Positions 565-42,334 of a DNA stretch of 45,747 bases are shown piece by piece. Position 1 is the stretch's first letter; every line of letters starts with the position of its first letter. The translations under genes and the position numbers were made by a program. The stretch is from NCBI GenBank assembly GCA_000934665.2, contig KZ538827.1:1-45747 (forward strand), given 5' to 3'. Source of the DNA: Catajapyx aquilonaris. Lineage: Eukaryota. The notes below the pieces were generated by a model that saw only the letters and a program-made list of their open reading frames with translations, did no database searches and had not been told where the DNA came from.

Positions 565-1375
565 TACATACAGGGCGTTCCAAATGTGTGGCTCATTTTT
601 AGTTATCACTAATATTGCCCAAGTAGTTATTTTTGTGTAGCTAGTTGTGCCCTGATCCAGGTGCCTCATTACTCCCAGGTGGTCGAATATAGCAGTTTCT
701 ATCAAATAGGGCACTTCGTTAGAGGCACAACAAGTTACAAAAAAAAAACAGCTTCAAGCAAAATTTCCTATTACTAAATGTACTAACATAGTAAGTTTAA
801 TATACAAATATAATTTGTGTTTCCACACATGTCAAGGAGCAGGAAAATGTTGGCCTCGGTGCCTAAACAATTTTCTCCCCTACATTGCAGACTTGTTTTG
901 GGCCAACAAGAATGCAGTAACTGGGTGTCCCACTAGCAAAAAAACCCCACTAGTTGGCTGTAGAGCTCCACTAGTCATAGTACTTACAGAACTCACACTG
1001 TGAACTGTAAAGGATGGTCTTCCTTAACACTATGGCCACTAGTTAATTTTGACTCCATTCTCTGACACTGAAAAAGAGTCATATAACAGCTAGGAGAAAG
1101 AAAGACAGTCTGACACTTCAAACATGTTGGTGGGAACCTTAGGGAGAAAAATCGGGTCATAATATAATCTCAATGGACTCCATCAATGCAGCAGGAAAAC
1201 ACCATCCCCAAGCCCCAACATCCAATATGTGGTAGGCCTACTCAGAAATTTTTGTGTTTTGTAGGCTATGCTCAATCCAAAAATATCCCTTTGTGTAGTA
1301 ACACTCAAAAGTATCAATTTCATATCTAGCCCATATGTAACTTTATGCTCTTCACTCCGTCTATGTAATACTCAC

Positions 1376-4300: not shown

Positions 4301-7300
4301 ATTTAATGGGAGGTTTCAGGGTGATGCTCATAGAGTTCAGAAGGGTCCTTTCCCTTCTTTTGCAAGAAATGCAGTACAGTAGTGTATTGTAACGATGGAT
4401 ACAATACTTCAGGGAGGCCAGAGACCAACAATACAGTACTATAGATATCTATACACCCTGCCACAATGCACCACGAAAAACATAAGAAGCGCCAATAAGG
4501 TTGTGTTTGGCCCACAGTTTGGACTCAGAAGTGTTGTCCCTGAGATGTGATTATGTTTAGAATGTTTTGTATTTTCAAATTGTTTTTTGTTTTGTTGTAC
4601 CCCATGCTATGGCCCTAGGCCCTCTTAGGGGAGTGGAATACCACCATCAGGTGCAGGGGACAGGATAGGGATAATGAGGGGGGGGGGGGACACTGNGGGG
4701 GAGGGGGGAACTGGTGCAAGTGTAATGTCTCATGGTGGGGGTCGCATGCAGTCCCTCAGGGAGCCCGTTTGCCAAGATGACCCCCTAGATGCAGGTCAGA
4801 AACGCCCCACCGACACTGCACCTCCTCATGGATGGGACAAGGATAGGAAAGGAAGGAAGTGGCTGAGGCCTATTATTTAGGAAGCAATCCCGGAATTCTC
4901 CTGGGGGGACCGTGGGATACCACAGAAAACCACGGTTAGGATTGCCGGCCCCGGGACTCGAACCCAGGACCTCCCGATTAGCAGTTGAACACCTTATCCA
5001 CTCCACCAAACTGCTTCGGTTGTATTTTCAAATTGTCTTAAATTTTCTGGTTTAAAAATTTTCAAAGGTAATTTTGACACCGGCGTTAATGTGAAACGGT
5101 GTAAAATGTGTAGTGCCCCTTGCACAAAGCATGCAACTACTACAAAGAGTAAGAGCAAGTTCCCCCCCTTCAATACAGCACCTACTCAGAGCCTCAAAGT
5201 AGTAGTACAGAGGAAAAAGTGTGTTCTGAATTAATATCAAAATAGCAAGGTCAATGTGTACAGCCTTCCTCGGCCGTGAAGGTCCGCCATCTTTGATAGT
5301 TTTGCCATGGCACTTCACGGCAAGAACATGTGCGAATTTGAATATTTTTGCCGTACTTACAGAATCAATACGTAGAAAAGTGCGTTAAAGGAGCTCATAC
5401 GGCAAAAATATTCAAATTCGCGTGTGTTCTTGCCGTGAAGTGCCATGGCAAAACTATCAAAGATGGCAGACCTTCACGGCCTGTCTGTATCCTATTTATC
5501 CCTCGTTGGCGCCAGCCTGATACTCACGACCGGGTGCAAGTGTTGTGGCTTTGAAACATTGCCTTTTGGCTGTATTTTCACCCTGCTAAAGTGGAAATTA
5601 GCAGCGGAGGTGATGTTTTCTCAACACTATAGGCCAAGCAGAATTAGAAAATACAAAAATTTCAAAATTCAGGAGGGTAAGAAAAGTCACTTTGGTCTTC
5701 AGTCTTAAGGATCCACCAATTGGTACAGGACACTCCATCCTTTGGCAGGACAAAGGACATATCGGCATGCACAAATACGTGAATCCTTACAACTAAACCG
5801 AAAACTAGTGCTATAACCACCAGTGTGTAGACCCTGGTACTGTTCACATGGTGCAAATGGTAATGACAAACTGGGAGGAACCTTACAGACACCCAGTGTA
5901 AACCCTGAATAGAGAAGGCAGATAAAACACAAAACTTCTCAAACCTGCAGATGTCTGAGAAGAATATGGTGACGTTTGTCTTGGTCCTCTTCGGTGGAAA
6001 GAGTTCGCCCTCTGATCCATTGACCATTCCACAATAAGACTCGTAATACTGTGTCTGGGTTACATTGTTCCAGGAATCAATATCAGCCAGGTGCTTTATA
6101 TCTGCAGATCCAGTGTTCATCTCAAAGTAGCCATCATATGTACTCGAGCCATTTCGCTTTAAAAAAATTACACAATATCAATGTTAATGCAAATGAATGT
6201 TATTGCCTTTCAGATACTCTATGGCAGCAGCCTTCAACCTTTTTTTCCTGCTTCAAAACCCTTTTGCTTTACACAAATTTGGCTGGAACTCTGTACAGTA
6301 TTGTCCAATGATACCAATACTTATGAATATCTATTAACAGCTACGTGCTCTCTTCAAATCTATTACATACATGTAGTCCACTTTAGGTTTTTTAAATTTT
6401 CTGGCATGAAAATAATGAACCAGAGAAGAATAACCAATATTGATATTAGCATGTTGACATAATGTAGACCCCAAGAATCTTAAAAGAATCCTGCAAAGAG
6501 GCCTGCATATCCCTAGGGTTCCACAAACACAGGCTGAAAACTGCTGCCCCTTATGATTGTCAAAGTGTTTGTTGCCAAGAAAGTGGGCACCAAATAATAA
6601 GTTACTCACAGGGTAGAACCATCCAAACTTGTCATAAGGCACGTCAAATCCAGGTAAATGGAACTCCCTGACCAGATTCAGAAGATCGTCATCATAGCCT
6701 TCAAAAAGTAGCTCTCGAACTTTTTTAGACACAAAAACCTTTGTTTTGTGCTTCCAAAAATAGCCATCTAAGGCGAGCTTCAGAATAAAGCTGTTTTTGG
6801 CAAAGTGAGCTGCTACAAGTGGTAGGACATTGAGTGACATAACCTCATCATCTTGGCTGCCATGGCTCAGTGATTCCTCAAACCACCAGGTCATTTTCTG
6901 ATGGTACTTTATGGTCGCGTTGGGAGTCCAGTCCAGATCAACTTTCACCCGACTGCCTCTGCAAAACAATGAAGATAGTATTAGTCTCTTATTTCTATTA
7001 CTACTACTACTATTGAAATTTTCAATATAACAATAATAATACAGTCGAATCCCTCTATAACGAATCCGGATATAACGAAAATCCGCTTATAACGAAAGAA
7101 AGTTTTTGACCGTCAGAGGCCCCATATAAACCCATGTTAAAAATATCCACCCTCTTGGACGAAAAAGGGCGGAAGTAGGCAAATTGGGCCATAAATCACC
7201 ATCTGTGTGGTCGGGATTCAACCTTTTTTCACACATTCCCACCAAAAGTTGATAATTTGGGGTCCTAATGGAAGGGAAATGATTCTCTGGGAGGGGGGGA

Positions 7301-9849
7301 GGGCTGTCGCGCAGTGACTCAGAGCTGCCCACTGGATTTATTGCTAGCTCGTGGCTCCCCCAGGGAAGGAGGCAGGTGGTTAAAACCTGGAAAAATTCAT
7401 CAGAAATTTGAGCAGCAAAACGAATCACATCTGGAAAGGAATTCCTGGACGCGGACTTATCATATGCTGCCTAAATGGTGGGATGAGGGTGCGAGCGGAA
7501 TAGGTGAAGGGCCTAGTCTGCATCTGGTGCAGTCCTCTGGTGTTTGCTGTAACTTATTGTTGTCGCGTTTGCGCCGTGCTTTGTGAGATAATCTAATTTA
7601 GCGCGGAAGAGTTTTTTAACTATTTTTCCCACTACCAGGGCATCATATGACACCTAAATATGGAAAAAAGTTGGGGAGATGAAGTGGCGACCGCGCCCAC
7701 GGATATGAATGTCCCGGGTTCCCCCCCGGGTTCCCCACCCGGGGTTCCCACCTTTATCCGTGCAGAGTTGGGCCATCTCTGGCTTCATTTCGGGTGGAAA
7801 TATCCTAAAAGACTAATCCACCCGGGGGAGTTCACAAAATGACCACTCAACGACAGCACACATGCACTTTGCACATCCCCTCCCACCTAGGAGTAAACTA
7901 ATAAGATCCTTCTTAACACGCTCCAACAAACCCTGATAGTGGTAATCCACNNNNNNNNNNNNNNNCCCCCCCCCAAAGGAGTAAGTAGCTCCCTAAGTGG
8001 GGTAATGAAAAAAAGAAGAAAAAAAAGCGAAAAAAGTGAGGCTTAAATGAATTTTTTTATATATAGCAAAATTCGCATATAACGAAAGAAAATTAGGTTC
8101 CCTTCAATTTCGTTATAGAGGGATTCGACAGTAATAATAATTCATACCCCGTTATCAGCCATCGGCTCTTTAGGGGGGAAGTATGTTTTGCCTGGAACTC
8201 TTTGCTTTTCATTTTACTGTGCTCTTTGGGATAGGATAGGGACGGAAGGAAGCGGCTGTGGCCTATTAATTATGGAAGCAACTCCGGAATTTTCCTGGAA
8301 GGACCGTGGGAAACCACAGAAAACCACGGTCAGAGTTTCCGGCCCCGGGATTTGATCCCAGGACCTCTCGATTAGCAGTCAGACACCATATCCCCTCCTC
8401 CAAACTGCTTCGGTGAAATTTTCAATATACAGTAAGTACCCATTTTATGCCGCTCCATTTTACGCCATTTCACATTAACGCCGGTTTGAAAATGGCATTT
8501 AAAAAAATTTTAATTTAAAAATTTTGCAAAATTTGACGATAACTTAATCTGAACGCAACACTTTTGAGTCCAAACACATGACCATAAATGCTCTTTTTTG
8601 TTTTTCGAGGTGCCTTGTGGCAGGGTATATCAATAAATACAGTACTGTATTGTTGGTCTCGGCACTCTCCGAAGTCTGTTAAATACCCTACGTCTACTGC
8701 AGTTCTTTCCAAAATAAGGGAAAAGAGGCCTCAGAACGCAATGACCCTCAACCTGAAACTTCCCATTAAATGTGCATAGTAAATGTTTCAAATAGTCAGC
8801 ATTAAAAACAGCAATTTAAGTATACTGCCTGAGGGAAAAAATTTGGAAATCTTGGAACCTATCTCATTTACTTAAATTATAATTTTGTCTCGTTTTAAAG
8901 CCTTCTCAATTTACGCCCCATTTTGCTGGAACCAATTACCGGCGTAAAACAGGTACTACCTGTATTAGGCATTGTAAGCTGCTCTAGCAGCATTATAACC
9001 CATAGGTACTATAACTGCTGGTCTTTATGTGTGGTAATATTACCTAAAAGTGGAATTTCCTAAAGACTAATCCACCCGGGGGGAGTTCACAAAATGACAT
9101 TAGCAATGACATTGCACTGCACTTTGCACATCCCTTCCTGTCATCCTGCCTGTGGGCCCAGGCGATTCGCTCAAGGTTCCAGCATTGTACTGCATTGTAC
9201 TTCAAGTACAGTAAAACATCTATAAGTCGAATCTCCATGGGACCGGGGAAAACTTCGAGTTATAGAAGATTCGAGTTAGAGAAGTTTGGAATTTTTAAGC
9301 ACATAACTCTATAAGGAAGCCTACCTTTATATCCAGGGACGAAAGGTGATCAAAACTTTAAAATAACTGTCACTATCACTCTTACAATGTTCCTCGTTGT
9401 TTTGTTGTAAAAAAATCTCCGGACATTTGCCTACTCTTAGATTCAAGGATTCAATTGTCACAATCGAGTCAAACACTTCTTTCGGTACGTCTGGTAGACG
9501 GAGATCAGGAAATTGAGCCTTTCTGTACATGCGGCCTCCTCTCGACCCTTCGGCTGGGAAATGAGAAAATTTTCCACATTCGCCAAGATGAACTTCGACT
9601 TAGGGAGACTGAAAATGCAATGATATCCCATCGTAAGGCCCTGCCTGCACTTGGAGTTATGGAGAACTTCGAGTTATAGAAATTCGAGTTAGGGAAGTTT
9701 ATTTCCTATTATTTTACATTGTGACCAACCAAGCTCATCATTTTCTTCGACTTATAGAGAACTTCGACTTAGGGAAGTTCGACTTATGGAAGTTTTACTG
9801 TATAATAACGGTCCGTGCTCCGTACCTGATACAGTCTAGCACTACCCGG

Positions 9850-9927
<78 letters not shown>

Positions 9928-11609: not shown

Positions 11610-12100
11610 CAGGGGTATTCAACTAGTTTCGGACAAGGTCCAGTATTTACCTTTCCTGGCCCATTGAAGGTCCGGACCCCCCCCCCCCCCGGGGGGGGAT
11701 GTATAGATTTTATATGGTACCACAGGGTTCATATTCGAAAATATAAACATGTGCAGCAAGGGTAGGGTCTATCAAGACAGGGGATATTAAGACATTTTCG
11801 CCCTTTATGATGTCCTGTACAGGGGCGTAGGCAGAAGAATTTCGGAGGGGAGCCCATTTCGTAAGCACAAGGTGAACAAGCCGTAAAGGGCCCGCCACAG
11901 GCGAAATTTTTGGGGGTTCAAGGTCACAAGAGCTTAGGTAAGATGTGGGAGATTTGAATAGGTGTGTATTTGATGAAATTGGTAGCACTTTTTCCAAAAA
12001 AAATCATGAATTAGTCATTTATCATGCTATTTCAAACAGTCCTGTATATTGTCGCGGTCCTGACAAAATTGCGTCGCGGTCCGCCAGTTGAATATCCCTG
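11610..12100. mobile_element. hAT-like MITE
   Basis: TIRs CAGGGGTATTCAACT and AGTTGAATATCCCTG; 8-bp TSD GCCTAAAG. Confidence 0.88.
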
Positions 12101-12662: not shown

Positions 12663-13349
12663 TATTTTTACAATCAGAGGAAATTTAGAAAAAATTTGGC
12701 ATACATGTCACGGAAACATGACTTGTATTACTTCTGAACGATTTTGGTCCTTTCAGGAGCACAAAAAAATACTCCTCAAAAAACCAAACATGCCTCTGAA
12801 GGAATAGGCCTGGAATAGGCCCAAAAAGTCCCAAAATTACTGCAAAATGGTCAAAAACTATCCCAAAAAAGGCCAAATAGGCATGAAATGTTGCAAAAAG
12901 GCAGATTTGGCAAAATAGTTCCCAAAACCAAGCGATACGCCATTTTCGGCACCTACATTTCCACATCCTGCACTTATGAAAAGGATCGATATCTTCACAA
13001 AACCATCCCAACTGTTAACCCTGGAACCGTGCCGTGGGGTCTTTTTGGACCCCAAGGAAAAAAATGCATTAAAATAATCATTACAATGAACTTTTGCCAT
13101 TTTTTTACAGTAAGCCAGTAGGCTAGTAGAGGAATCCGAGAAATATCGGACGAGTAGTTTCGATTCTATAGCCAATTCCAAAGCGATTGTCACTTATGTA
13201 CTTCTTGAGCCAAAAAAAACATGACGCGGACAGGGGAGAGTCGGGGACTTTTGATATGTTGTTCAGCATGGCAAACAGAGCCTGTGTGCAAATTTTCAGC
13301 TTTACATTATTTTTGTCCGGGTTAGGCCTCATTTTTGTCTAAAACTCCT

Positions 13350-13787
13350 GGGCTAATAGAGTAAGAGGAGGAGTGAGAGACAGAGGAGATGATAGAGTAC
13401 GGCTGGGGTCCCACCAGGTGGGACATGACGGGGGTCCGGAGCGGGCCCCGATCTCTCCGACGGGATCTTTCCCTTTGGGGCTTGACGGAGGCCTGGGTGA
13501 CCAGGCAGAAGTCGAGAGGCCTGTCGGACGGGATTGGGGCGAGCTCCGGACCTTACAGGTTCGGGACTCGATCGTGGGACGGGCGGCTCCTCTGGGTGTC
13601 GTCCCGATGGTCGAGTCTCGACCCTATGACGGCTTGGGTTCGATTCGGAAGCGAACGGGTGGTCCGCCCCTGGCGGACCACGATGAAACGGACTTAGAGT
13701 GATGATATAGGCCCTATGTGGGGCCCGGGGTTTAAGGACCTACATGGTCTGGAATAACCCCGTTAATATCTGACTAAGTATATAACA
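13350..13787 (-). mobile_element. GC-rich insert, possible truncated LTR
   Basis: Abrupt GC-rich block in AT-rich surroundings; minus strand begins TGTTATATAC. No second LTR or TSD found. Confidence 0.35.
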
Positions 13788-18300: not shown

Positions 18301-20915
18301 TAGAAGTGGACATCCCCTGTAATTTACTCTGATTATTACTTTAAAGCGTCTTATTTTGCTCACATAAGTCAATCAATGTCTAAAAATGCCGAGACAAAAT
18401 CCTGCGACGGGGGCACTTCAGGCGGAATCATTGTAGCACATATAAAATATAAAGGTTTATATAGCAGAGCTGCACATTTTTTCGTTATTTCCAAACATGA
18501 AGGTCATCATGTTCCTTAGATATACAGCAGCTTAAGTTTCCTTCCATTTGTTGCAAATGGAACTCAGTTGTAAGTCTTAAGCACGAGAAAGTACCCTACT
18601 ATCTCTAACACCCAAGACAAATCGTGGATACAGAAAGCTTACTGATTACCTTTAGCTGAAACAAAACACTCCGTTTCCTGAAAACCTCACACGACTCTCC
18701 ATCGCCTAAGCAAGTCTTTTCTCACACTGAGGTCACATGACGCAATTTTTTCTTCTTGAAGAGTGACCTTCAAGCACGAGTTGAACGTACGAAATTAGCT
18801 AATTTCTCATATTCTCCTTATAACTAATTCATATTTATTCAGCACACCCTATAGTATTTTTTTTGTATTCTTCATTCCTTAGGAAGAGAAAAGCGAAGCC
18901 TTGAAAATATTTTATTCAGCGCGAAATGAATGGTTAGACTAATACAAATACCATATCCTCCTGAATACAATGGCGTGTCATGTTTTTTCACATGTAACAT
19001 CACATCGACAGGACTTGCGCATATGGCACAAAACTAATGAGTTATAAAAGTCAGCAGGATGATGTTTCGTAAGAGTTCACATGCGAACCGTACCCAGTAA
19101 AATGCCTACCTTTTTGTGAAGGTGCGTGACGGGCACTCTATACCTCTACACTTTCATTACTTACTACGTGGCATATGCAAAAATCATTGCAAGCATTTCA
19201 TGAGACCATGATGCATGAGATACTCTTACTCATTATATGTGGGATATTGCTCTCGTATTTCAATCACGGGACTCGAGTGTTGGTTTATTCAAGGGCAACG
19301 AAATTTGCATTTGATCCAAGTGTATATCGATGACCAGGGTCAGTATGAAATATTTGACTCACAATTGCATAATCTGCCTTGCGACCTTGTGTGCCATTGT
19401 AGTGTAAAAATACATGATAAGAATGAACTAAATTGATCACAGGTTGCAGGTGTCGCAAGTGAGTATATGAAGTACTCACACAACATATGAATATTACACA
19501 GCTGGTTCCACTGAATTAAAGTGTGCAATTACCAATTTTGACACTGAGAAGTTTATTAGCCGTCAAACGGTTACTTGTAGAAGCACCCAAAAATTAGCTG
19601 TTAATATCAAGTCGAAGGAAACCGTCTTCTCAGCAAAAAGTCTCGACATTGCTAAATAACCAATTTTGACAATATATTTGCAGAAGAGGTCAGCGGTTGA
19701 CCCCTATTTTTACAAACTTGGTAGAAAACAGACCTTCGACATTTTTCTTGTCGCGGAACCCTTTCGTTTTACACAAACATTTCCAAATCCCTGTGCAATG
19801 TTATTATTCTTTTGAATGCCTAACAACAAGCATGATGCTCTTATTACAGCATGAGGTCTACTTTCTATTTTCAGCTTTTTTGCGTGAGAATAATGGACCG
19901 AAAAAGAAGTACTGTAAAGGCACCTAGATTGATATTAGAGCATTTATCTGACTAATACTATCCCAGCTATTACCCACAGATATCACTGTAATATCAATGC
20001 GGTGTTCCACGGAATACCGCACCAGTTCATCATGACCACTGGCCTTCTCACGCATTATAGGCCAGCTAAAAAGAAAAATGCCATTCCAAACCATACCGGT
20101 TATCATGTGGTACCGTACATAGCGTTGTCTTAAAGTGTCGAATCAAGGCGATTACGATAAAACTCATATGCGAGTGTGTGAACCATACATTATGGAATAA
20201 ATAACATCCTTATTATATTTTTGTACAGGTTATCCTAAGCATAAGATTTGGCTTGAATTATCCCAGACATACAGTATAGGCGTGATGCCGATCAAATAAA
20301 AAATATATTAAAATCTGATAGCGTCTAATGACCGAATCAGAAGTATTCACATCTGGTGGATTACTAGATCTCGGTGCTGATAGATTTTTACTAATAGCAG
20401 GAGGGAAATAGGAGGACCCTCATACAGTAACACATTTAATATATTGAAAGTAAAATAACTATTGTTACCTACTAACAGCAGAATATGCATGCTGTGCTGG
20501 GTTAGAATCAAAATAAAGTGCCTATATTATATCTGAGCATAGTAGGGTATAATCAAGTTTGTTGCTGGCAACACCTTTCCGATCCCCTGCACCCATTTAA
20601 TGCCTCTTTAAATCCTTGCCATACACGACTCGATCCTAGGTAACTATCCATCCGTGTAGATCCTTGGCAGCGATAGACCCAGCATCCAGACTGGACAAAT
20701 GGACGCACATGAGATGGTATCCCCGGAACAGGACATCCGGAGGGCGATTCAAGGGCGCATTTCTCTGATGCAGGCAAGGGCACATACCATATTTTCAAAG
20801 GGGGTACATTTTATATTATTTTTTATTCTCCCCCCCCCCCCCTTTTTATGAGAACCTCTAAAATGAGCCTGCTTGCACGAATCTAGATTAGTTCTCAAGG
20901 AGCCGTAGATCCAAC

Positions 20916-22957
20916 ATGGCCTACTCCGTGGCTCTTGTGCTTTGCCTCGCCCTCACCTCATCTCTGGTATGCTATTATCATTTGTAGACTAATGATATTA
21001 ATTGAATTGTTACTATTATCACCTTCAAAAATGTACACTTTATATTAATAGGAACCTAAGACAATTGAACTTGAGCTGATTTCCTTTTTCTAACTGTTTC
21101 ACCAATGAATAAGGCAAATTATTGAATTTGATAAATGCTGTGTACGGAGCTATCGAGATAAAATATAACGTCATTCCCCCATATACCCGAAGATGTCCAT
21201 ATAGCAAATACCGCAGAATATGTTCATTGTATTAAAGCTTCTTTATATTAAATGTTGACTATGATGATGCTAATTACGATGATAAATTTCAGGCTGCCAT
21301 TCATGGGAGCTATGACAGCAACAAGATTGATCAGGGTGAGTTTATAAATTATGCCCGCTGAAACACATTCCTTAGTTAGACTACTTTTCTGTAACATAAC
21401 GAATGTATTTTTGCAAAGTGTTCCCACTAACTGCTCTACCAAGAAGAGAAGGGCTCTAATAATATGGTTTTGTGGCACTGAAAATATCCATTGGGTCTGT
21501 CCATTTCTTCATTGAGTAGGGGAGACCAGTGATAGTTGGCACAATTTTTACATTTCATTTTTTATGACGTCAATTAAGACTTATTTGCTGTAATTTATAT
21601 ATTCTCGACAGGTGACGAGAAGACCAGGGACAGTCCTCTTCCAGACTGGCATTGCTCGGACAAGTTTGTCGGACTTGCCATGAGGGTATGTACAACATGA
21701 AACATGCCATTACAGTAGCAGTACGACGTCATTGATAATTCCTGTCTGGCCAGGCATGCGATGTCGTGACTGATGAGGCAGAGGTAGCCTTCTTGTCCTG
21801 CGTCAGGGAACTGGACCTAACCCTGCCCTGCATTTTCAAGTCCTGGCTCCATACCGACACCGTCCGCACTTGCCCCAATGACGAATCTGAAATTGATACA
21901 TGGGACCGATTCCTCAACCAATCCGAGTCCAGGGTAAGCCCAGAAAGGATTAAAGTTTCCAGTGATATTATCCTGATTGCCAGAGAATTAACTAACGATT
22001 CATTAATTCCAGTGCCTGATGAGGTGCTTCTTCAACAAGATGGGATTGGTAAGTACCCTGCAAATTGGCTTCAGTGTATGTAGCACTGTAGGAGTTGGCA
22101 GTTTTATTGGCCACACTGTGTCACACACTTTATGGTCATTCTATAGTACGGCTGTACAGTACCGTGTGTAACATGAGTCAGCTCACATTGCAGGATGTTC
22201 ATATCGCTTCACGCCAAATGTGAAGTTGATGATGCCACAGGGACAAACATCCGCGAAGTTCCATCGATACAGATGTGAGCTAATGTTACACGCGATATAA
22301 CCAATGTGAACTATGTGACTATTTTTCATGGTCACTGACGTCAATGAGTGGCAGTGTGCATGCCATGATTTATGATCGTGTGTAATCCGCCCTAAAGCTG
22401 TATACCACACATGAAAATGTATGTTATAATTCGAGCCATATATTTTGACAGATGAAGGAAGACAACCACGTCAGCATGGTCAGATGGTACAAGTACGTCG
22501 AGAAGCACTACACAATGACCGGACGTTTCACCGCAAAGGAATCCAATGAATTCCTCAGCTGCATGCGTGGTGACGACGGTTCCGACGGTAAGGAAGCTCA
22601 TTTTAAATGACACCTTGCATGCATGAATAGACCATTGTTTTTAGATTCTGGCGAATCTGATGACGATTCAGCTGACACTTCCTCATCGGAGGAGGACAGA
22701 TACACCATGCAGAGACCAGCTGATTGCGTCGAGACCGAGAAGGCCGAAATTTGCTCCTTTTCTCTTTTAATGAACGTAAGTTTTTTTTTTCAATACCTTA
22801 CGTATAAAATGCTTCTCAGGATTGACTTCTAATAACATTATCCTTGATTTTCTTCAAGAAATTGGAAGAGTGCGTCGGACCCGTATGCCGTAAGCTCCTG
22901 GTCGGAAGCAAGGGAATGTACAAGTCGGCCAGCCAACTGAAGGATTTCTCCGAATAA
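20916..22957 (+). CDS. Secreted cysteine-rich odorant-binding-protein-like (PBP/GOBP-like) protein, 249 aa, 8 exons
   Basis: Exons 20916-20966, 21293-21335, 21612-21685, 21754-21933, 22013-22048, 22452-22587, 22645-22775, 22859-22957; all GT-AG, 750 nt with no internal stop. Signal peptide MAYSVALVLCLALTSSLA. OBP-type spacing C-X20-C-X3-C (CLMRCFFNKMGL), then X43-C, then C-X8-C (CVETEKAEIC). AATAAA at 23068. Confidence 0.85.
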
Positions 22958-24196
22958 GAAGACGATGATAACCAATCTATTTGAATTTTCACTCTATCTC
23001 TAACGTTTTCCAGCACTTCGGACCAACATTATTGGCGCAGGTGGGAACTGCTGTACAAACAAAAATTAATAAAAGCAAGAGTTGCTGCATACACACACTC
23101 ATTCACCATATTTCCCAAGTATGTCTTATTTGGCACATCCTGTAATCTTTGCCCTGCTGCCGCTGCTGGTGATGACAATATAGGCTGTAGCACGCTTATT
23201 TAAAAAACAGCAACTTATGATAAAAGTGACCTGATATAATTATACGGACCTGGAGTTCAAGAGGAGATAGCAGCAAAGTTATGAATTGTTTACCACTTCA
23301 AGGAAAACAATCAAAATCACATTAAAGTTGCTACATCTTTAATTTATTCTTACTACTTTGTCATTGCGAGCTTTAGTCATGAATAGATAACGGCTAACGC
23401 GCCCACATCGTCTTATCGATGGGAATTGTATGCTAGTGACTAATACAGGATAAAAATGGTCATATGTTCATGTATTGCTCCTTTGCCAATAAATAAAAGA
23501 GCCTACTTACGCAACAAATCAGAGGGTCACAAGATGGTCAGTGATTTTCATTTATTATTCATTCAAACAGAGAGTGGTATACCGACGTCACAATGAGCAA
23601 AATTATTGTCAACAGAATCAGCAATTGAAGGCTCGAAAGATGACCAGGCCTTCCAGGCTAATCATATGTCAATCATGTTTCCCACAATATTTTAATTAAT
23701 GAAGCCAAGCTTGGGCACAGTAAAAAAAAATCCCTCCAATCGTAATAATTATATCAGGGTAAATACCGTACTCTTTTTACTCTTTCTCAATTCACCAGCA
23801 TCCAGTGTCAATTCCATAATAGACGCGCATATTAACATCAATGAATGATGATTGAGGTAGGTATTGCAAATATTTGTTCTCCGCCCCCAACACAAGAAAA
23901 TAAGGCACTCAAAGACAAATCTGTTGTATTGCGTATAGTGTGAATAGTGTGTATAAGTGGTAGATGTTGCATTTAATTGGGATAAACGGACTTGTGAGAA
24001 ACGTAGTAGTATCACGTGCGTAACATGGTTCATTGTCATGCTCTATATGTGTAAGTTTAGTATATGGTTCAGCTCTATTTCATTGCTGTCTGTCAGAAAT
24101 GTTACGCTTTCACATTTGTGTTTTCAATTTCACTCCATTTAGACTTTCTGGTAATATTAGGCCTACATACATCCGGTCTCAATCAGGTATGCTTAA

Positions 24197-27151: not shown

Positions 27152-30100
27152 TCAAATTCGATTATTCTGCTGGACTCTCTGGAACGTAATAAGATCAGCC
27201 AAGTTGTCCGACCTGGGCTTTCTGGAAGATCCTGGAACATTGAGGGTGGACGCAGTCAGACGGAACGGTCTCTGGCGACGAGACCTTCCTTGCTGTATTG
27301 GAGAAAACAATATTAGTCTGTGTATAACCCATTCGGTTACTAATAATGCCCCGCTGTGTAAAATTCGCAAGTGCGACCAGCACTGTATTAATTCTAGACA
27401 AGGCTTAAGTCAGATCGACTACCGTATTTACCTTTCCTCTGGTCATCATTTGCTTGATGGTGCCTATGAGTATGATCAAGAAGGGAATAACCACCAGAAT
27501 GATCCATCCCATCACATTTGTCCACTGGGGGAACTTTTTTCCTTGAAACGTGATCGAACTGGAGTCCCTCGATTTCAGGATGACTCCGAACACCACCAAA
27601 CACTGAAACAAAAGTCAAAGCTTTCAGTCACAATACCCTTAAATAGGTAACGGATACGGTCCTAAAACTCGCTGCTGTCAACAATTTACCACTATTGTCA
27701 CGGGCTGAAGGAAAGTCCATGAAGCCATCCAGTAGATTTGCAGTGCAAGAGGCACACGTGTTCCAATGTCTTGGATGAGCTTGATCATCTTGGAGGGCCC
27801 GAAGACCCAGGCAGTGACGTAGACCTCTAAGGCTGACATTACCAGGATACCCCAGTCCGAGGCGAAGATTTCCATCAGCTTGTAGATGAAAAGGCCTCCA
27901 CGGAGGCAAAAAGGAAGCGACAGCACGCTGGCCAGAAAGCATATACTCAGTACCAGGTATACTCGATTCCATGACGGAACGTGATCCACTAGGGTAGACA
28001 CCACCGTCTCCACCAGTACCAACTAATAATATTCACATACATTTTGATTATTAAACTGATAAATAGTCAAGGAGAGCGGATAGAGACCATGCTGACCTCA
28101 CTGCTGAGTGAAAAGGTGAAGACTACAACATAGAATGAGCCGGTTATGACGTGGGGTAGAGGCATCACAGCAAAGGCTTCTGGGAATACAGTGTATAGCA
28201 TAAATGTTGGGTCGTTGAATATTGGGAATGCGGTTTCATAGGCCGTGGTAATAACCCCCATCGCTGCGAAGGTAATGAGAGCTGTAGCAAAGTATGTCAC
28301 TAGAGTCAGGAAGCCCACCATGAAGGTGCCCCTGGAAAGGTAAGAAAACAAGCACAGATTATATACTATACATATAATTGTGGTAGTGGGACGCCTAATT
28401 GGGGACCCCTCACCTGTTCAATTCATTTTTATATTGGTTCAACAATAAGCTAAAATTTCCAAATAATAAGGGTTCTTCCCTGACACTGTTATGTATAACC
28501 CTTACATGTGACAGTTGATGCGACTGCTGTTGTAGCTGGCTAGCACCATCAGGCATCCGACGCCAGTGTTCATAGAATAGAGAGCCTGAGAAGCTGCATC
28601 CCTCCACAGGTGCCTGTCCATCAGCTTGCTATCATCCACCTCATCGAACAAGTGCATGATGCCCTCCTTCGCTCCACTGAACACTGTGGCTAGAATATTG
28701 AAGAATAATTTTTAAAAAATAATGGAGTCTTAATTTTCATTTTGCTACAATGCTTTAGAAATTAGCAAAAATCTAAATCCGAGAGTTGTTGCAACATCTT
28801 TCCACACCAATTTGTATGTAACAGTATTGACTGAAATGCTTTCTTACTGAATCCCAATATGACTGAAAGTGCCATGTAGGACAGGACCAGTGCCACAATC
28901 AGGACGGCCCTGGACAGAAATCTCATCCCCATGACCAGGAGAAAGGCAAGTATGCCCCAACTGACGAACATACACCCTGCGACTTCCCAGTGAATCCATC
29001 CTAGATTGGACCACGATGTCCCTCGGAAGTCCAGTACCTTGAACCTGCCGAACGAAAATCAGTCTTTACTTTTCTTTTGCTCCTCAAACGTTTTTCTCTA
29101 AAAACTCAGCTACAACAAAGGCAAAATGAAAAACTTACTCAAAGTACTCAACTGCAGCGGATGTCCGTGTTACCATGTTCTCAACGGGCACAAAGGTATC
29201 CGTGGAGGTTGAGCAGTGAGTGAGATTGTAATAATCGTAGTCATGTTCAGCGCAGAAATCGGATATGTTGTGGCACATTCGGTTGTAAAAAATCGTTCCA
29301 GGATTCTCTGAAAGGCAATGGGCGTTGTCCAAAGGTCCGAAACAATCTGAAGAAGAAGAAAAATCGAACCACTGCACTTGGTAGTCACATTATGTCCCAA
29401 TAAGTCAGTCATCGCGTAGTATTATGACGCTCTAACCTTTGGTGTTCCATGTATTAGTGCAGTGAATCCATGGCAAGAAGCTCCCCAAATAACTTCTGAG
29501 GATGTAAGACATGGACCAAGCCATCACCATGCAGTCAGTTATTGAGGTTATGAACGCCATCCATACCATGGCCCAGCCTAGACCTGTCAAAACAATAACA
29601 AACTACAGGACATGTAATGTGTTGTTTTTTTCGGTCATTAAGACCCAGCTACGCAGAAACGGATTTACAGTACATTCTTTCCCTTATCGCCCAATGAAAA
29701 CCTCACACCCCCAGGTAATAATGAATGAATAATTTGTTAGTAAGTTATTTAATACAAATAATTTCGGATATACCTACAAAACATGTCTCAATTGCCACAA
29801 GTTTGATCAAGAACAGCATAAGTTTACCTCACATAGTAAATTAAAGCGAAAATATTTGAAACTTGACACATACTACGAAAATGAGGGGTAATTTTCCTAT
29901 ATATGTCGACAGGGCCCATCTTGAACGTGTGTCCCAAGAGCACCTCCATGAAGGCCAGTGGAAGCGAAGCTACCACAAACATGCAGGTGAAGGCTATCAA
30001 AAATGTCCCTGAAATTTCCCAATGCACCATTTTATTTTATCATCACTGAATATTGAAATATGCGCCAGAGCTAGTCCCTCCGTAAAATTTTTTTAATGAC

Positions 30101-30730
30101 TTTACCTTTGTACTTGGAACATAGGAAGGGAAAGCGCCAAAGGTTGCCTGCTCCAATGGTGCACGAGGCATAGGCGTACAAAAAGTCACCTGTTGTCATC
30201 CACTTCCCTCGGCGGTTGCACGACTTCCAGAACTGCCACCACTTTCCCAAGTCTTCATCTTTCTAAACAGGCAAAAAAGTATGGGTGACATTATAGAACA
30301 GCTGACAGACAACGGGGATCTGTCCAAAACGGGAGTGACATACCACGTCATGTTCGGAAGCCACATAAGGCACGGTGATGATCTCTGGTTCCTGCTGTAT
30401 CGGCAAAGATACTATGCAGACGTTGTTCTTGCGCAATGGCTTCTCGCTGACCTCCAGAGTGTCGTCCTCCTCTTCCGTGCCACAACTTGTTATGCTGGTG
30501 GTCGCCGTGACAAAAACTGGGGACGGTGGACCTTCCTTTTCCGATTCCTGAAGCTGCAGTCTGGAGCAGCAGCTATGGAAGGTTGATGACACGGTGGGGA
30601 TGCTGGGCATCTGGGACTGAGGCAGAGGCGCACCCTGGTTTAGCTCCAATGCCACACGGGTGTTTGACGCCGAAGACACGTTGTCTTCCGGCGGCTTCGT
30701 CGGTCCGGGAAAGTTTGTCTTCCTCGACAT
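27152..30730 (-). CDS. Divergent SLC6 (sodium:neurotransmitter symporter family) transporter, 764 aa, 11 coding exons
   Basis: Exons 30730-30344, 30262-30106, 30008-29874, 29583-29437, 29346-29139, 29044-28848, 28689-28506, 28331-28097, 28022-27690, 27602-27432, 27292-27152; phases consistent. Motifs RGKW..DF..IGAGNLWRFPFLC, LPWIHCTNTWNT, LWRDAASQ..ASYN, FPEA, and a Cys-rich extended EL2. Confidence 0.93.
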
Positions 30731-32186: not shown

Positions 32187-32278
32187 AACAATGCAGGTGT
32201 TAAGGTGCTGGTGCATGATCAGTAATTAGTCATCTACCTCTCCAGCAGGGACCAGAAATTAAGTAATAAATCATAGCA

Positions 32279-33329
32279 ATGGCGGCATATATGCGACGTC
32301 GGGCTTTACCCCGTCAAGAACCACCCCCGATGACCCTGGGCGAGGTCGGCGCCCCGGTAGCTTCTAGGCACAGGGAAAGCATCTTGTTCTTTCCTGAAGA
32401 GGGCCTGACGTCCTTTCTAAATCAGCGCACATCCATGCAAATTTTGACCGGGTCTATGTTCGAGTCTGCCGACGAATCCATATCCTCAGCCACAACGACC
32501 AATCCATCGTCTACATCCTTCTTCAGTGCCTCTGGCTGGCCACAACAGCCCTTCGATGTTCAACGAATGCGAGCTAACGTCAGGGTCATGGCGGCAAAGG
32601 CCTGGCCCGATGTGTTCTTGCGGATACCGATGAAGTACGCTCATCGGCATCACGCCAAAGCATGTGAGGTGCTCAGCTTTCTGAGGAATAAGGCGGCTGC
32701 AGTTGACGATCCCGGTGCTGCGACCATTATTAACTCACCGCAGCCCGCGCAGCCCTCCACTTCCAAAACTACTCCTCAGAAGACACCTCAGAAGCGCTCG
32801 AATTCAGGGAAGTCAACAGGGTCAGGGAAAAGCACCAGGGGCAAGTCCGGAAAATCACAAAAGGTCAAGCAGGTAACCTCAGGGATCACCTTCCTGGATT
32901 CCGCCGAGAAGAAGCTTGCGTGCGATCTGGCCTTCTCATTGAAGAAGTGTAAGTGATGTCATCTTTCATTTTCATTGGGCCTGCCTCTAGTTACAACTTT
33001 TCCTATATATTTACTATATTGGAGACGATGACTGTCTAATGCTCACTTGAGATGTACTTCCCAGAATCAAGCAGTTTATTGCTAATACTCCCTTATCTCG
33101 AGACACCCATGACAATATTATTGTGGAGGATTGTACTTGATATTCCACTTTGACATAATTATTCACACCTAGACCAGAGGTTAGAGGTCTATTACTGCGT
33201 AATTATTCAAAACACTTATTGCTGATTAAGGCCAGATTGTACGCTTGTGCCATTCAAGGTAAATGATATAACCAGGCATTATTATTAATTTTATTATTAT
33301 TGTTGTTGTTGTTGTTGTTGTTATTGTTA

Positions 33330-33385
<56 letters not shown>

Positions 33386-36300
33386 GCACATGGTCATGGT
33401 GCCATGTGAACTTTTGCTCCTGCCCTTCCTTCCTTGTCCTTTCAAGTGTCAGGGTAACACGCAGGCGCTTATCACGATACTTTTGGCGGTTAGTCCCCCA
33501 ATATAGTCAGACCTTCACCCCATAAAGCTATATTTAGGCGGATTTCGCTGCAAAAAAGTCAAAAGTCGTCGTCCTGATATAGAGCCCTATATACCCCCTA
33601 CTGCTCCCCATTCTTCTGCATTATGAAAGTGATATTTACAGTATTCGAGAGTTGTTCGCATTCTATGGCACTTCGGCCACTTACACATCCTAATGAATGG
33701 GACATAGCGTTGTCCTCTAAATTGACACATCTTTGTATTGATGACGGGTTGTTTTTGTTTTGTTTTTGTTTTTTGTCAAGAAGTAATTATCCGCATGTCC
33801 ATGACATCAGTGACAAATATGGCGACCATTGTTGTCATGTAGCCAAACGCCAAGACGAGGATATTTTACACAAAATTTGGCACTCTATTTGTGGATCTGA
33901 AATGAGCAAAATAATGCTAATCCCACACGTAGCCGGGTAGGTTGATAAATAAATCCCAGGTCCATTTTAATATCTGTCGCACCCTATATACAGAGACTTG
34001 CCTTCGCTTCACCCTTATTTATTATCCTTATCTAATTACAAATTTGCTAGTCAACTCTCATTTCTTCTGTATGCGGCTCATCCTATGTGTGGTACCACTC
34101 TTTCAGACGAGCACGTCTTGGATGAGATCCTCGACGAATGTTGCTTCTTCAAGAGATTTCCTGAGGTGAGTGCCAGTCTATATGTACGAGTATATCATTA
34201 GTCTCATAAAAGTAACAGTCATACTTAGCACAATGAGCTCATTCAGCCCCAAACGCGATGTACAAGATTAATACGATATTCAATACTAAATACTCTCAAT
34301 TTTTTTGAGCGTTGCAGCACGATGTAATGAAAACGTCCTGACCTCACCCATCCTCTGAATGAAGTGTCTTAAATATGTTGACTTCTTTGGGCAGCTCATA
34401 TTAGAAAGGGACATGGTTATGGCCCTTTTCTTCGACCTGCAAGAGAGGCGTTTCCGTCCGCGGACACAAATGGAAGGCGAGACAAACATCCCCAGGATAG
34501 AAGTGGTAGAACAGACGGTGACGGGCATGAGGATCAAACTTCAGGCTGCCATGGCTCGAGTCAGGATAAAACACGACGCTCCATCACTCAAACACCTCCT
34601 CCCTAGTCACATACGACAGATGGATGACTATGAGTCTGTGATTCCGCTCTACGCTTGGATCAACAGGTGCAAGGCTAGGTAGGTTATGCGCACATATATA
34701 GGTTTTCTCATGGGCATTTGTTATTTATCTAATGTGCTTGTCACTTTGTGTTGGCAGTCTTCCTGAGGTTCTACAGAGCCTACATTCCACCGGGTTCAAA
34801 GTAGTGGACCACCCTTCCAAGTTGACCAGGAACACGTATATGCAAGACAGTGACTGCCCGGACCTGCTACAGTTCCATTGTAGCCATCGACCGGACCTTC
34901 CAACATCCCCGCTCTTCGAAGGAGGCGCGCTTGTTGTGCAGGTGAATGAATGAGCGAATTAATTAATTACTTAATTAATGGGGGTCGGTCATGACAGACT
35001 GCATGTGAAAAGGGAAGGGGAGGTTGATACCAGCAAGATGAACCTTGACCTGGGGGTAAGGAGGAGGCCAGATATGTCAAAATTTAAAATGGCACAAGAC
35101 AGTATTACAGAGAAACCTTATACATGGTGTTTCGTAATGATTCGGACAAACCCAGGGTGACCCAGGCAAGGGGTCTTATAATGATATCGATCAACTGTAG
35201 CTACTGTACTTTCTTATTTTAATTACAAAGCCATAATCGTATAGGTATTTGACACCATATGTTTCCAAAGTATCGAGGCTTCGGAGGCCAAGTAACACCC
35301 ATGGTACCCATAATCTGACTTTATATTTACTATGTTTACTGTATTTACTCATCATTTAGTCTACCTCCGGAACACTAGATAATTGCCGTTATGTCCTTTT
35401 TCAGGAAAAAACAACATGCATAGGACCACAGTCATTTCTGCAAGCAGTGCAGAGCAACGTTGTCGCAGGCGATATCCTCCACACTCATGTTGGCTCTGGA
35501 CGTACCACAGCCCACTTGGCCAGCCTGCTCCAGGCAAAACAGGAGACTCCAAGACGGACGATATATGCCTTCGGAGCTGGACATAAGTAAATTCAACCTC
35601 CGTTTATCACTCTAGACTCTAGAGCAGTTGTTCCCAACCTTTTTCGGGTCGTGACCCTCATCTTCCGAGTATTAGTAGAAGATTAATGAAGTGAAGACAT
35701 ATTTTTAAAACCTTTGTGGTAAAGTAAAACCGCGCGACCCGAGGGAAAAGGCTTTGCGACCCACAGGATGGGAACCACTGCTCTAGAGCCCTTGTTTTAC
35801 CCTGCAACAGGGTACCAAATGACATGTTTCAGTGACCACTGACCAGTGCTGTTATACAACCTTGTTTATTGAAGCATAAATACACATCTATACTACCGGT
35901 ATTAAAATCGTAGTCAAAGCCATGGTGCTACTTTTCATGGAAAAATATTGTTGATTTCAGGATTAACCAGCTACAACATTTTTTTCGTCAACTGGGTATG
36001 GACAACGTGATGGTATTCCGGGAAAACTTCACGAGGGTAAATCCACATGACCAGCGTTGGGAGAACGTTACTGCTGTATATGTCACCCCACCCTCCTCGA
36101 ACTGCAACGTCATCAACCCAGTTGATTTTGTCTGCAATGAGGATGTGGGTGAGTAGTTCCATGTGTAGAGTTGTTACATCAGTGTCAATTTTTGAAAGTC
36201 CCAAGGGGCAACTACATTTACTGTATTACACTACCGGTATGCAACAAAAATCAACTTGTTTTTTGTCCATGGAAATTCATCGCTACTTCCATGTTCCTTA

Positions 36301-38040
36301 GGTCACTCGTAACTCATAATGACCATTCATTTTGTCTGCAATTTGTTTTTGACCTCGGGCAGTTAAAAAACCAATACCCTCAAATATAGCAGTTTTTGCC
36401 AATCAAGTGGGCCTAAATGTTGCTAGACCATCTCGTATTTTGCTGAAAAAAATCACAGCTGTACACACCTATGCCATAACACTGCATGCCAAGTTTCAGC
36501 CAAATTGCGAAATACCGTGGGGAGGGAAGAAATTGCGAAATTTTAGAAATTGGTCTTTCTTTTGGATAATATTTTTCGGTTAGTGGAAGTTGTAACTGGT
36601 CAAAACTATATATATAATAAAAGCATTCTCCTCGCGGTTTTCTTTCATTTGATATATGGGTGTAACAAGACCCCATGCATAAATTTTAAAGGCGGGTAGG
36701 GGACCCCAAAACAAACATTTTTGACCAATGAACCCACCCTGTAAAAAAATCAGAAAATTCACTTAAAACGATAACTGGTTAGTGCCTGTAGTAACAGTTA
36801 TGTGGTAGTTGCTACTCTACAGTAGCGTTGTCATGGTAGTGTTGACAATTTAGTACAGTACTGTAAAAGGTCGTCACCACCACAAATTAATGAACGGTGA
36901 CATGAAACCTACCACCACCTTTATTGGACCAAACCTGCAATCAAAGGAGCTGCTCAAAGTGTCCTCCAGCCACTTGTACACACAGCCTCCTACTACTGTA
37001 CAGTACTGCACTAAATTGTCAACACTACCATGACAACGCTGCTGTAGGCCTATAGAGTAACAGCAACCACATAACTGTTACTACAGACACTAACCGCAGT
37101 AATCGATTTAAGTGAATTTGTGATTATTTTAGAGGGTGGGTTCATTGTTCAAAAATGTTTGTTTTGGGGTCCCCTACCCACCTTTAAAATTTCTGCACGG
37201 GGTCTTGTTACACCCATATATCAAATGAAAGAAACCCGCGAGGAGAATGCTCCTATTTTATTTTTCTCGAAAATGTAACCAGAAAAACGTGTGTAGCATT
37301 CTATTGGTCACATGCTCAGTCACATGTCCGAGTGTTTAGACGCAAACAATTAGTGATGTATTTGCGTAAGAGCAGCCATATTTGGTGACAGGAGTTGTGA
37401 CCGTGGTTGTGACCCATACAAGATTCAATATGTTCAGTTTCAATCCTGGGTCATGCATGGCTCGCGAGAAAATAATAGATATGTTTTGCAGTTAATTATA
37501 CTTGTATACCACTAATTTTCAAGGACCCAAATTCTTGGACATGTGATCGATCGAATGCCACACACGCTTTTCTGGTTACATTTCAGAAGAAGAAAAATTT
37601 AATAGGCCCATTCTCCTCGTGTTTCTCTTTCGTTTGATGTATATGTTGATTGGGTTTTCACCACTTCCACTAACCGAAAAAAATTATCCAAAAAAAGGCC
37701 CCATTTCCAAATTGCGCGATTTTTTCCCTCCCCACGGTATTGCTCAATGTAGATGAAATTTGATATGCAGTGTTACGGCCTAGCTGTGTACAGCTGTGAT
37801 TTTTTTTCAGCAAAGTCCGAGATGGTTGAGTAACATTTACTGTAGACCCACGTGATTGGGAAAACCCCCTATATACGAGTAATTGAGGATTTTGGTTTTT
37901 TGACTGCCCCGATGTCAAAAACAATTTGCAGACAAAAATAATGACTGGTCATTATGAGTTACGAGTGGCCTGAGGAAAATGGAAATTCCGATGAATTTCC
38001 ATTGCCAACTATCGTGTTGCATAGTGTATTAGTGTTGATG

Positions 38041-38105
<65 letters not shown>

Positions 38106-38451
38106 TAGATATGAGTCTGCTGAATGCGGTCATTGACCATCACCAGGGTCAAAATATGGCCCGCAAGCTGTTCTCAGACCAGGTGAGTATCCTGGAACAT
38201 GCACTGGCATTTCCTCGAGTGTACTTGGCTCTCTACCAGACCTACTCACGCCTGGATGTGGAAAACCAAATGGTCATTGACTCAACGCTCTGCACTGTCA
38301 ATAACAAGTACAGAGATGCAATAGCCAAACGACATAAGGACCCGGACAGGATCGTTACAGAAGTAAGCAGTAATCACGTTCTACAAGCATGCTGATTACA
38401 GTATAGAATGCTGTGTGCTGATGTGTAGTGTTCTCAGAGAACCATAGTATG

Positions 38452-38536
<85 letters not shown>

Positions 38537-41500: not shown

Positions 41501-42334
41501 TTTATATAATGGCAAAGTCTGTCATTTTGGATATCCCTGATTTGATTCTTAGAACTGGATATTCTGGGAAAGAAATTCTGTATTTCATTTGTCATTGTGA
41601 AAAAATGCCTTGGCAAGTCAATCAAACAGGCCACAGAAATCCTTTCCCCCCCATTAATTTTTTCTAGAAGCCTAAAAAAAGAAAGAAAATAATAAAAAAA
41701 GAAACAGCAATTTCCTAAGTAGCCAAACATTATCAAAGGGTAAAATACTCATATAACTACACTACAATTTGTTATATCTAGAGTTTACCGGTACTGGAAT
41801 TGTGAACTTGGGCAGTGTATACCACCCTGCATACATTAACATTGTTCCAAGTTATTTTTGAAGCATCTAACAAATTGACTCGATCATAAATATTTCAATT
41901 TGCCATAAAAATGAATTATTTTTGTAATCTCAGAATGACCCAGACAGTATGACAGCAGTTCAGAATGATTCAGAATTAAAATTTCCTTCAGGCACCACCA
42001 TGAAGACAGTGAGATGAAAACTCGCTTTGTGGCCCAACCAGTGAATCCAAAGATCCTGAAGCCTCGCATGGACCAAATGCGAATGCAAGAGGAAGCAAAT
42101 AGGATTGCTAGGCGATGCAAGAACTACAAGGGGATGGGGATGCATAACTTGACAGTTACTGTTACGGAGGGAAAAGCAGAAGAAAACCTCTACTCCCTGA
42201 TGGCCACCTCCATAGCAGCTTCAGTTGCCACCCAGATGTTTGGCAGAAGCAAGGATGGGTTTGAAAAACGACGAAAGCTGTACCCGGTGCATACACTCAG
42301 GTTGGATGGAGGCAGCTTTTTCGATCATGAATAA
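32279..42334 (+). CDS. NSUN7: NSUN7-like NOL1/NOP2/Sun-family protein (probable pseudo-methyltransferase), about 904 aa, 10 coding exons
   Basis: Exons 32279-32948, 34107-34165, 34395-34678, 34758-34941, 35405-35586, 35961-36148, 38109-38362, 39240-39413, 39664-40040, 41992-42334; GT-AG and phase-consistent. NSUN7-type segments LAFSLKKYEHVLDEILDECCF, FFDLQERRFRPR, RIKLQAAMARVRIKHDA, PLYAWIN, NPVDFVCNE, SGCFLAMLKR. Start codon and last exon are less certain than the core. Confidence 0.88.
33292..33386. repeat. (TTG)n/(TTA)n microsatellite
   Basis: Read directly; in NSUN7-like intron 1. Confidence 0.95.
35625..35780. mobile_element. hAT-like MITE
   Basis: CAGTTGTTCCCAACC and GGATGGGAACCACTG; 8-bp TSD CTCTAGAG. 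Confidence 0.88.
36225..38030. mobile_element. Composite fold-back structure with nested inverted repeats
   Basis: Outer arms about 36225-36595 and 37660-38030; inner hairpins 36621-36865/36999-37250 and 37271-37325/37539-37583. Confidence 0.8.
38042..38104. repeat. (TTA)n microsatellite abutting a splice acceptor
   Basis: Runs directly into TTTAG at 38104-38108. Confidence 0.95.
38460..38859 (-). mobile_element. tRNA-derived SINE family B, full length, with (ATT)n tail
   Basis: B box GGTTCGATCCC; homologous to 40540-40906; TSD TAGTATGATATAATAATA at 38445 and 38860. Confidence 0.9.
40540..40906 (+). mobile_element. tRNA-derived SINE family B, full length, with A-rich tail
   Basis: A box TGGCGCTGCGG, B box GGTTCGATCCC; 12-bp TSD ACTGAAAGTTGG (40528-40539, 40907-40918). 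Confidence 0.9.

Follow-up and report, generated by a model that had tools for sequence, protein, structure and literature searches.

The window analyzed here, positions 1-45,747 of contig KZ538827.1, is a 45.7-kb stretch of nuclear DNA from an animal, and its GC content is ~0.34-0.51 per kb. On its + strand, between positions 20916 and 22957, it contains a candidate gene of eight GT-AG exons that join into a 750-nt coding sequence (CDS) for 249 amino acids (aa) followed by TAA. The predicted product may belong, as a divergent member, to the insect-type odorant-binding protein (OBP; PBP/GOBP) superfamily, a reading to which we assign a probability of about one half. The exons were read straight from the nucleotide sequence and the model was then rebuilt by script. 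An earlier note on this DNA had described eight small exons (36-180 nt) splicing into a 249-aa protein, and the rebuilt model bore this out, with the 750-nt frame recovered and all seven introns beginning with GT and ending with AG. The features of the predicted gene, with the proposed core cysteines numbered C1 to C6, are as follows.

20916-20966, + strand: exon 1 (51 nt), with the start codon; aa 1-17, signal-peptide-like; donor CTG/gtatgc
21293-21335, + strand: exon 2 (43 nt), phase 1 end; acceptor tttcag/, donor AGG/gtgagt
21612-21685, + strand: exon 3 (74 nt), with Cys46; acceptor cgacag/, donor AGG/gtatgt
21754-21933, + strand: exon 4 (180 nt), aa 57-116, with Cys58, Cys72 and Cys82 of the N-terminal extension and Cys96 (proposed C1)
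22013-22048, + strand: exon 5 (predicted 36-nt microexon), aa 117-128, sole carrier of the C2-X3-C3 pair
22452-22587, + strand: exon 6 (136 nt), aa 129-173, phase 1 end; C3-C4 region, Cys165 (proposed C4) and start of the acidic loop
22563-22724, + strand: coding segment of the C4-C5 acidic stretch, aa 166-200, split by intron 6
22588-22644, + strand: intron 6 (57 nt), phase 1, interrupting the coding segment of the acidic loop
22645-22775, + strand: exon 7 (131 nt), remainder of the acidic loop, with Cys201 and Cys210 (C5-X8-C6); acceptor tttttag/, donor AAC/gtaagt
22859-22957, + strand: exon 8 (99 nt), with Cys222, Cys227, the C-terminal tail and TAA; acceptor cttcaag/
23068-23073, + strand: AATAAA, candidate polyadenylation signal, 111 nt 3' of the stop codon

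While analyzing the composition of the locus, we found that the exons were richer in GC than the seven introns (0.52 overall, range 0.47-0.59, vs. 0.36 overall, range 0.28-0.43), and that GC at third codon positions (GC3) was 0.66 overall and exceeded GC at second positions (GC2) in 8 of 8 exons. The extended donor consensus GT[AG][AT]G occurred at 7/7 donors, as compared to 15 of the 112 GT dinucleotides across the region, and the start codon has a context that we judged to be good (caacATGG). By inspection, the N-terminal 17-19 residues consist of a hydrophobic core followed by small residues that fit the -3/-1 rule at ~aa 16-18; aa 1-17 thus resemble a signal peptide, which is consistent with the secreted product proposed in the earlier note. 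The sequence is unique in its surroundings, in that none of the dispersed repeats of the window overlaps the locus and tblastn of the gene model against the window returned the gene itself, with no tandem paralogue and with the remaining matches at E>=2.2. For these reasons, together with the AATAAA candidate, we consider the locus very probably a real gene with predicted splice junctions. It is single-copy within the window, where a scan for the C-x3-C motif gave three further matches, all in unrelated or repeat-like open reading frames (ORFs). Four of its seven introns are 57-83 nt long. Open segments and splice-like sites that line up by chance could imitate such a gene, given that frequent AG and GT dinucleotides permit an open frame to be threaded across 2 kb, that the exon-level searches described below found no homologue, and that the junctions were predicted from the sequence alone. 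However, such a chance arrangement would not be expected to combine the GC contrast, the excess of GC3 over GC2 in every exon and the donor consensus at every donor with a signal-peptide-like start in good context and a poly(A) signal at the expected distance, and we regard it as very improbable.

A homopolymer C/G tract (20830-20842) sits ~75 nt 5' of the start codon of the candidate gene. It is one of four such tracts of 12-14 bases in the window, the others being at 4678-4689, 11677-11690 and 44182-44193, and the flanks of the four are dissimilar. Ambiguous bases occur at 4696, 7951-7965 and 44198; two of the C/G tracts have one within a few nucleotides, which suggests sequencing trouble at homopolymers.

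The spliced product has one cysteine in the signal segment, at aa 10, and others at aa 46, 58, 72, 82, 96, 117, 121, 165, 201, 210, 222 and 227. The predicted mature protein (~231 aa, pI ~4.7) contains 12 of these, an even number and enough for six disulfides. From Cys96 onward the spacings are 20, 3, 43, 35, 8, 11 and 4, so that the core spacings reported in the earlier note (C1-X20-C2-X3-C3-X43-C4 and C5-X8-C6) were reproduced exactly in the spliced model; the four extra cysteines that it placed before the core and the two after it were likewise found at those positions. The N-terminal cysteine spacings are 11, 13, 9 and 13, without an X3 or X8 pair. As given in PMC2808328, the general OBP motif is C1 X15-39 C2 X3 C3 X21-38 C4 X7-15 C5 X8 C6, and the motif of the Plus-C class is C1 X8-41 C2 X3 C3 X39-47 C4 X17-29 C4a X9 C5 X8 C6 X9-11 C6a; the order-level ranges in Table 2 of the same paper reach X46 for C3-C4 and X28 for C4-C5 (Diptera). 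The C1-C2, C2-C3, C3-C4 and C5-C6 intervals of the predicted protein each lie inside at least one range given in PMC2808328. The Plus-C ranges given there accommodate these four intervals as well as C6-C6a, with Cys222 located 11 residues past Cys210, and the 35 residues from C4 to C5 fall within the total Plus-C span between the same two cysteines (17-29 + 1 + 9 = 27-39). The claim that the core follows hexapod OBP spacing therefore stood for four of its five intervals and failed for C4-C5, whose 35 residues fit none of the published ranges.

We favor placing the product in the OBP superfamily because of this cysteine spacing, the cysteine at C6-X11, the even number of cysteines, the helical fragments described below, and the precedent of longer OBPs, the C-plus OBPs, in which extra cysteines and added segments surround a classic core (as described in PMC3839933). 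The weak hints of an arthropod host, described below, also count for this reading. When 12 cysteines were placed at random in 231 residues (200,000 trials), a relaxed form of the pattern, which was defined after the sequence had been seen, arose in 2044 placements (1.0%), the general OBP motif in 348, and the bare arrangement of X3 followed later by X8 in ~8%. The predicted cysteine pattern is therefore suggestive but not proof, and it exceeds chance only moderately. Alternatively, the gene would be real and the spacing a coincidence, the product being an acidic, secreted, helical protein that is rich in cysteines, specific to its lineage and without homology to OBPs. Candidates would include proteins of the matrix or cuticle, proteins associated with minerals, and glandular or seminal proteins, with the acidic stretch binding calcium or a basic partner. 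We regard this as a serious possibility, one that is aided by the ~8% and ~1% frequencies just given, and opposed by the presence of four intervals and the C6-X11 cysteine inside published OBP or Plus-C ranges, a combination that is rare by random placement.

Several observations weigh against an OBP and are gathered here and in the two paragraphs that follow. The post hoc definition of the relaxed pattern is one of them. The strict published six-cysteine motifs gave no match, either to the general motif or to the union of order-level ranges, because C4-C5 is 35 residues long, as compared to 7-15 in the general motif and up to 28 in Diptera; C3-C4, at 43, also exceeds the 21-38 of the general motif. 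The C4a cysteine of the Plus-C class is absent, there being no cysteine between aa 165 and 201, and C6 (Cys210) is directly followed by Ser, not by the Pro that forms part of the Plus-C definition as worded in PMC8067015. The earlier note's Plus-C-like label had to be dropped, since the gene cannot be filed as Plus-C with these two defining features lacking; of the extra features of that class, the C6a interval alone was found. At 231 aa, the predicted mature protein is also well above the 130-140 residues of typical OBPs given in PMC4145409, and no paralogue was found in the 45.7-kb window, whereas many OBP genes are described as clustered (PMC8067015). The failure of the strict motifs also fits a protein outside the family, as do the large size, the pI of 4.7, the acidic stretch with 13 D/E in 35 residues, and the long four-cysteine N-terminal region, which has no OBP counterpart.

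The weak joint of the model is exon 5. The C2-X3-C3 pair rests wholly on this predicted 36-nt exon, which can be skipped without loss of frame because exon 4 and exon 6 are each in phase 0. If the gene were real but spliced differently, with exon 4 joined to exon 6 or with the donor at 22075/22076 in use, the product would lack the pair or show another distance between C3 and C4, in which case the OBP signature would be an artefact of the exons chosen. In addition to the retained frame, this is favored by the 63-nt exon that the alternative donor produces, which scored as well as the 36-nt version (12.8 vs. 12.5), and by a model whose junctions come solely from inspection of the DNA. Skipping would leave 10 cysteines, still an even number, and is neutral in this respect. 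However, of the 30 in-frame AG...GT candidates enumerated across the 518 nt that separate exon 4 from exon 6, the top two both start at 22013, and GC3 is 0.92 in the 36-nt exon 5 vs. a GC of ~0.35-0.42 in the introns. Because the two best candidates share this acceptor, the motif-bearing part of the predicted exon is favored whichever donor is used, and we consider a transcript without the signature to be unlikely.

In order to look for relatives, searches were run with single-exon translations (24-60 aa) or with ORFs containing the exons, and the fragments were thus short. Scans of Pfam at E<=10 with five exon translations (24-60 aa) gave 0 families each, and the three longer ORFs that include exons 4, 5 and 6 gave no PBP_GOBP at E<=0.1. 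A phmmer search of the PDB at E<=10 returned 0 matches each for exons 6 and 7; for exon 4 it returned two TIM-4 matches (E 0.87 and 1.1), which were rejected as irrelevant. When exon 4 was compared to 1.84 billion representatives using phmmer, the sole match was P0001, a 451-aa repetitive protein in which a recurring short motif accounted for the 7 matched stretches, and it was judged to be spurious. Exon 4 is the piece least diagnostic of an OBP, yet it was the one run against this collection. A word-index protein search with exons 4 and 6 found nothing, and the ESM Atlas gave no usable match for exon 6. The lack of any family, structure or sequence match for the exons searched is what would be expected of a protein unrelated to OBPs. 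Nevertheless, these blanks are weak negatives, since the fragments were only 24-60 aa long and OBPs are extremely divergent, with identities that may fall below 10% according to PMC4145409. Furthermore, because no annotated protein with exon 4 was found among the 1.84 billion representatives, the gene may have escaped annotation.

The structures of two fragments were predicted from single sequences using AlphaFold2. Exon 6 was modeled as two helices (aa 131-151 and 156-167; pLDDT 73.8) and exon 4 as three helices of low confidence (pLDDT 53.7), with no strand predicted in either fragment. These models suggest only an all-alpha tendency, as an all-alpha family requires, and the predicted helices, being like those of OBPs, count to that extent against a non-homologous protein. 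A Foldseek search of the PDB with the 45-aa exon 6 model was uninformative, with four matches at E<=10, none of them an OBP, and 0 at E<=0.001. A Chou-Fasman-type scan of the spliced protein (92 residues H, 67 E, 90 other) was set aside as too crude. From C2 to ~15 residues past C3, the sequence appears to resemble the most conserved block of PBP/GOBP proteins, which we take as a lead and no more. Taken as a whole, the earlier note's proposal of an OBP subtype was right in its anatomy, and on cysteine spacing and this apparent resemblance the OBP superfamily is still the best single guess, but the exon-level searches gave no homology or fold match.

Comparison with described classes showed that the predicted product is not a classic, Plus-C, dimer or atypical OBP by the definitions of those classes. 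It resembles classic OBPs (PBP/GOBP, PF01395) in its putative signal peptide, C2-X3-C3 and C5-X8-C6 pairs, C1-C2 and C3-C4 intervals within order-level ranges, and helical fragments; it differs in having six extra cysteines, a longer mature protein, a C4-C5 interval of 35 vs. 7-15 and a blank exon-level PF01395 scan. The closest described proteins are the Plus-C OBPs. Like OBP47 and OBP48 of Anopheles gambiae, Plus-C OBPs as described in PMC3839933, it would be a secreted protein longer than the classic type, with a classic-type core plus extra segments and cysteines (12 here, as compared to 10 in OBP47 and 13 in OBP48). Unlike them, it has four extra cysteines N-terminal of C1 and an acidic low-complexity run as its C4-C5 segment; the likeness is one of layout and cysteine spacing. 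Dimer or tandem OBPs, with two six-cysteine signatures, share its length of ~250 aa and its 12 cysteines. This class was rejected, as the N-terminal half is without an X3 or X8 signature and the local alignment score between the N- and C-terminal halves was reached by 68 of 500 shuffles, which does not support an internal duplication. The atypical OBPs of mosquitoes (definition as in PMC8067015) were set aside as well, the 12 mature cysteines here being accompanied by only 39 residues past C6 and by an extension that is N-terminal. The pattern of chemosensory proteins (CSP, OS-D) given in PMC2808328, C1-X6-8-C2-X18-19-C3-X2-C4, is absent from the list of spacings.

More distant relatives were also considered. 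The D7 salivary proteins of mosquitoes are long (~300 aa), secreted and OBP-related with extra cysteines (PMC3839933). They have 8 cysteines in each domain, and they were compared with the predicted gene product by description only. The OBP-like proteins of chelicerates and myriapods are similar in that they, too, are secreted and divergent, and that their assignment came from the cysteine pattern and modeling more than from high sequence identity (PMC5381604). They resemble the Minus-C type, with two of the six cysteines missing, whereas all six positions and six more are present here. They also had BLAST or profile matches at E 1e-3 to 1e-5 and could be modeled on OBP templates with Phyre2, and nothing similar was obtained for the present gene. 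Obp59a and Obp73a, named in PMC8067015 and PMC6191283 as the two OBPs that have orthologues in different insect orders, were considered as candidate orthologues. If the product is an OBP, it would represent a new variant with a long acidic C4-C5 loop and a four-cysteine N-terminal extension.

The acidic stretch extends from aa 166 to 200 and spans the exon 6/7 junction. Its 35 residues comprise 13 D/E, 9 S/T and 3 K/R, in agreement with the Asp/Ser/Glu-rich loop of ~35 aa that the earlier note had reported, and six S-x-[DE] sites are located at aa 172-188. A narrow search of the literature for OBPs carrying an acidic insertion gave only a symposium abstract collection and does not establish that such a protein is absent from print. 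The acidic run is short beside those of typical mineral-matrix proteins, which speaks against a non-homologous protein of that sort.

If the OBP reading is correct, the fold, disulfide pairing and ligand carriage may be pictured as follows. An all-helical, disulfide-locked core at ~aa 96-210 would be held together by Cys96-Cys121, Cys117-Cys201 and Cys165-Cys210, by analogy with the classic pairing 1-3, 2-5, 4-6 given in PMC3839933, and would surround a cavity able to take up a small hydrophobic ligand, making the protein a secreted carrier of the OBP type. An N-terminal extension of ~77 residues with four cysteines would be helical and contain two further disulfides, and a short C-terminal segment would carry a cysteine pair. 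The acidic loop of 35 residues, rich in Ser, Asp and Glu and located between the helices that bear C4 and C5, would probably be disordered and project from the fold. It may be phosphorylated in the secretory pathway at the S-x-E/D sites, and it may bind cations or basic partners or tune the pH-dependent release of the ligand; these roles of the loop are ones that we infer.

A more ambitious proposal is that this gene represents a subtype of the OBP superfamily not described before, in which the 35-residue C4-C5 loop has become an acidic module that can be phosphorylated and binds cations, and the N terminus has gained a helical extension with four cysteines. Together these would couple the transport of a small ligand to calcium, pH or a basic partner. 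In its bolder version, the host would lie outside the insects and the gene would place a full six-cysteine OBP core outside Hexapoda; among arthropods, OBPs are reported in PMC4145409 to be limited to insects. We consider this proposal speculative and rather unlikely. Were the OBP assignment true, the gene would display an unusual architecture for a family whose subclasses rest on cysteine number, namely a classic-type core with no C4a and no proline after C6, a long acidic loop and a cysteine-rich N-terminal extension, and it would offer a handle on non-olfactory or cation- or pH-coupled roles of OBPs. Were it false, the gene would encode one more lineage-specific secreted protein.

The window is metazoan, as judged from its CD36, SLC6 and NSUN-like genes; no Rfam family reached its gathering score across the window. 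The neighboring genes and gene-like regions are as follows.

1361-7086, - strand: CD36-family gene (scavenger receptor class B / SNMP-type), three ORF-sized exons with PF01130 matches (E 8e-32, 4e-24 and 3e-20)
27408-30262, - strand: SLC6/SNF sodium:neurotransmitter symporter gene (PF00209), at least 7 exon-sized ORFs
32270-42331, + strand: run of GC3-rich ORFs, including a 228-aa ORF at 32270-32953
34702-34950, + strand: weak match to the NSUN5 ferredoxin-like domain (PF21148, E 0.0017)

Among 101 candidates, P0002 was the sole relative of one CD36 exon, with 71% identity over that exon. With this single relative at 71%, the host proteome is therefore seemingly absent from the protein collection, which limits the meaning of the blank searches. 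The Atlas cluster nearest to P0002 (0.99) is 'protein peste-like', which is most frequent in Arthropoda, and chordate clusters follow at 0.98; this peste-like cluster and the introns of 57-83 nt hint weakly at an arthropod affinity. For one exon of the SLC6 gene, the top PDB matches were chains of the Drosophila dopamine transporter (E ~5e-10), with human GlyT2 close behind; neither this comparison nor that of P0002 with the PDB was informative as to the taxon. The PF21148 match is the sole family match in the ORF run at 32270-42331, and none of the ORFs scanned there matched a methyltransferase domain; the run may correspond to a methyltransferase gene of the NSUN5/NSUN7 type.

Two families of short dispersed repeats were found, one at 4833-5031, 8151-8425 and 44543-44806 and the other at 7725-7883, 9049-9190, 38592-38858 and 40541-40795. 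Their copies are 77-92% identical with tRNA-like heads, and they are apparently short interspersed nuclear elements (SINEs). We take their wording to be like that of SINEs of hemimetabolous insects; a 20-base stretch of one copy was not found in a literature search. A GC-rich island at 13325-13739 (~0.62-0.65) is open in several frames on both strands and has no Pfam match. Long, near-perfect trinucleotide microsatellites of the ATT/TAT type occur at 9850-9925, 33278-33385, 38041-38105 and 38454-38536 and show up in ORF lists as poly-Ile, poly-Leu or poly-Tyr. Finally, a large inverted duplication, in which 36269-36593 pairs with 38002-37660 (82%) and 36612-36865 with 37261-36999 (89%), may represent an element of the foldback type that lies within the region of the NSUN-like gene.

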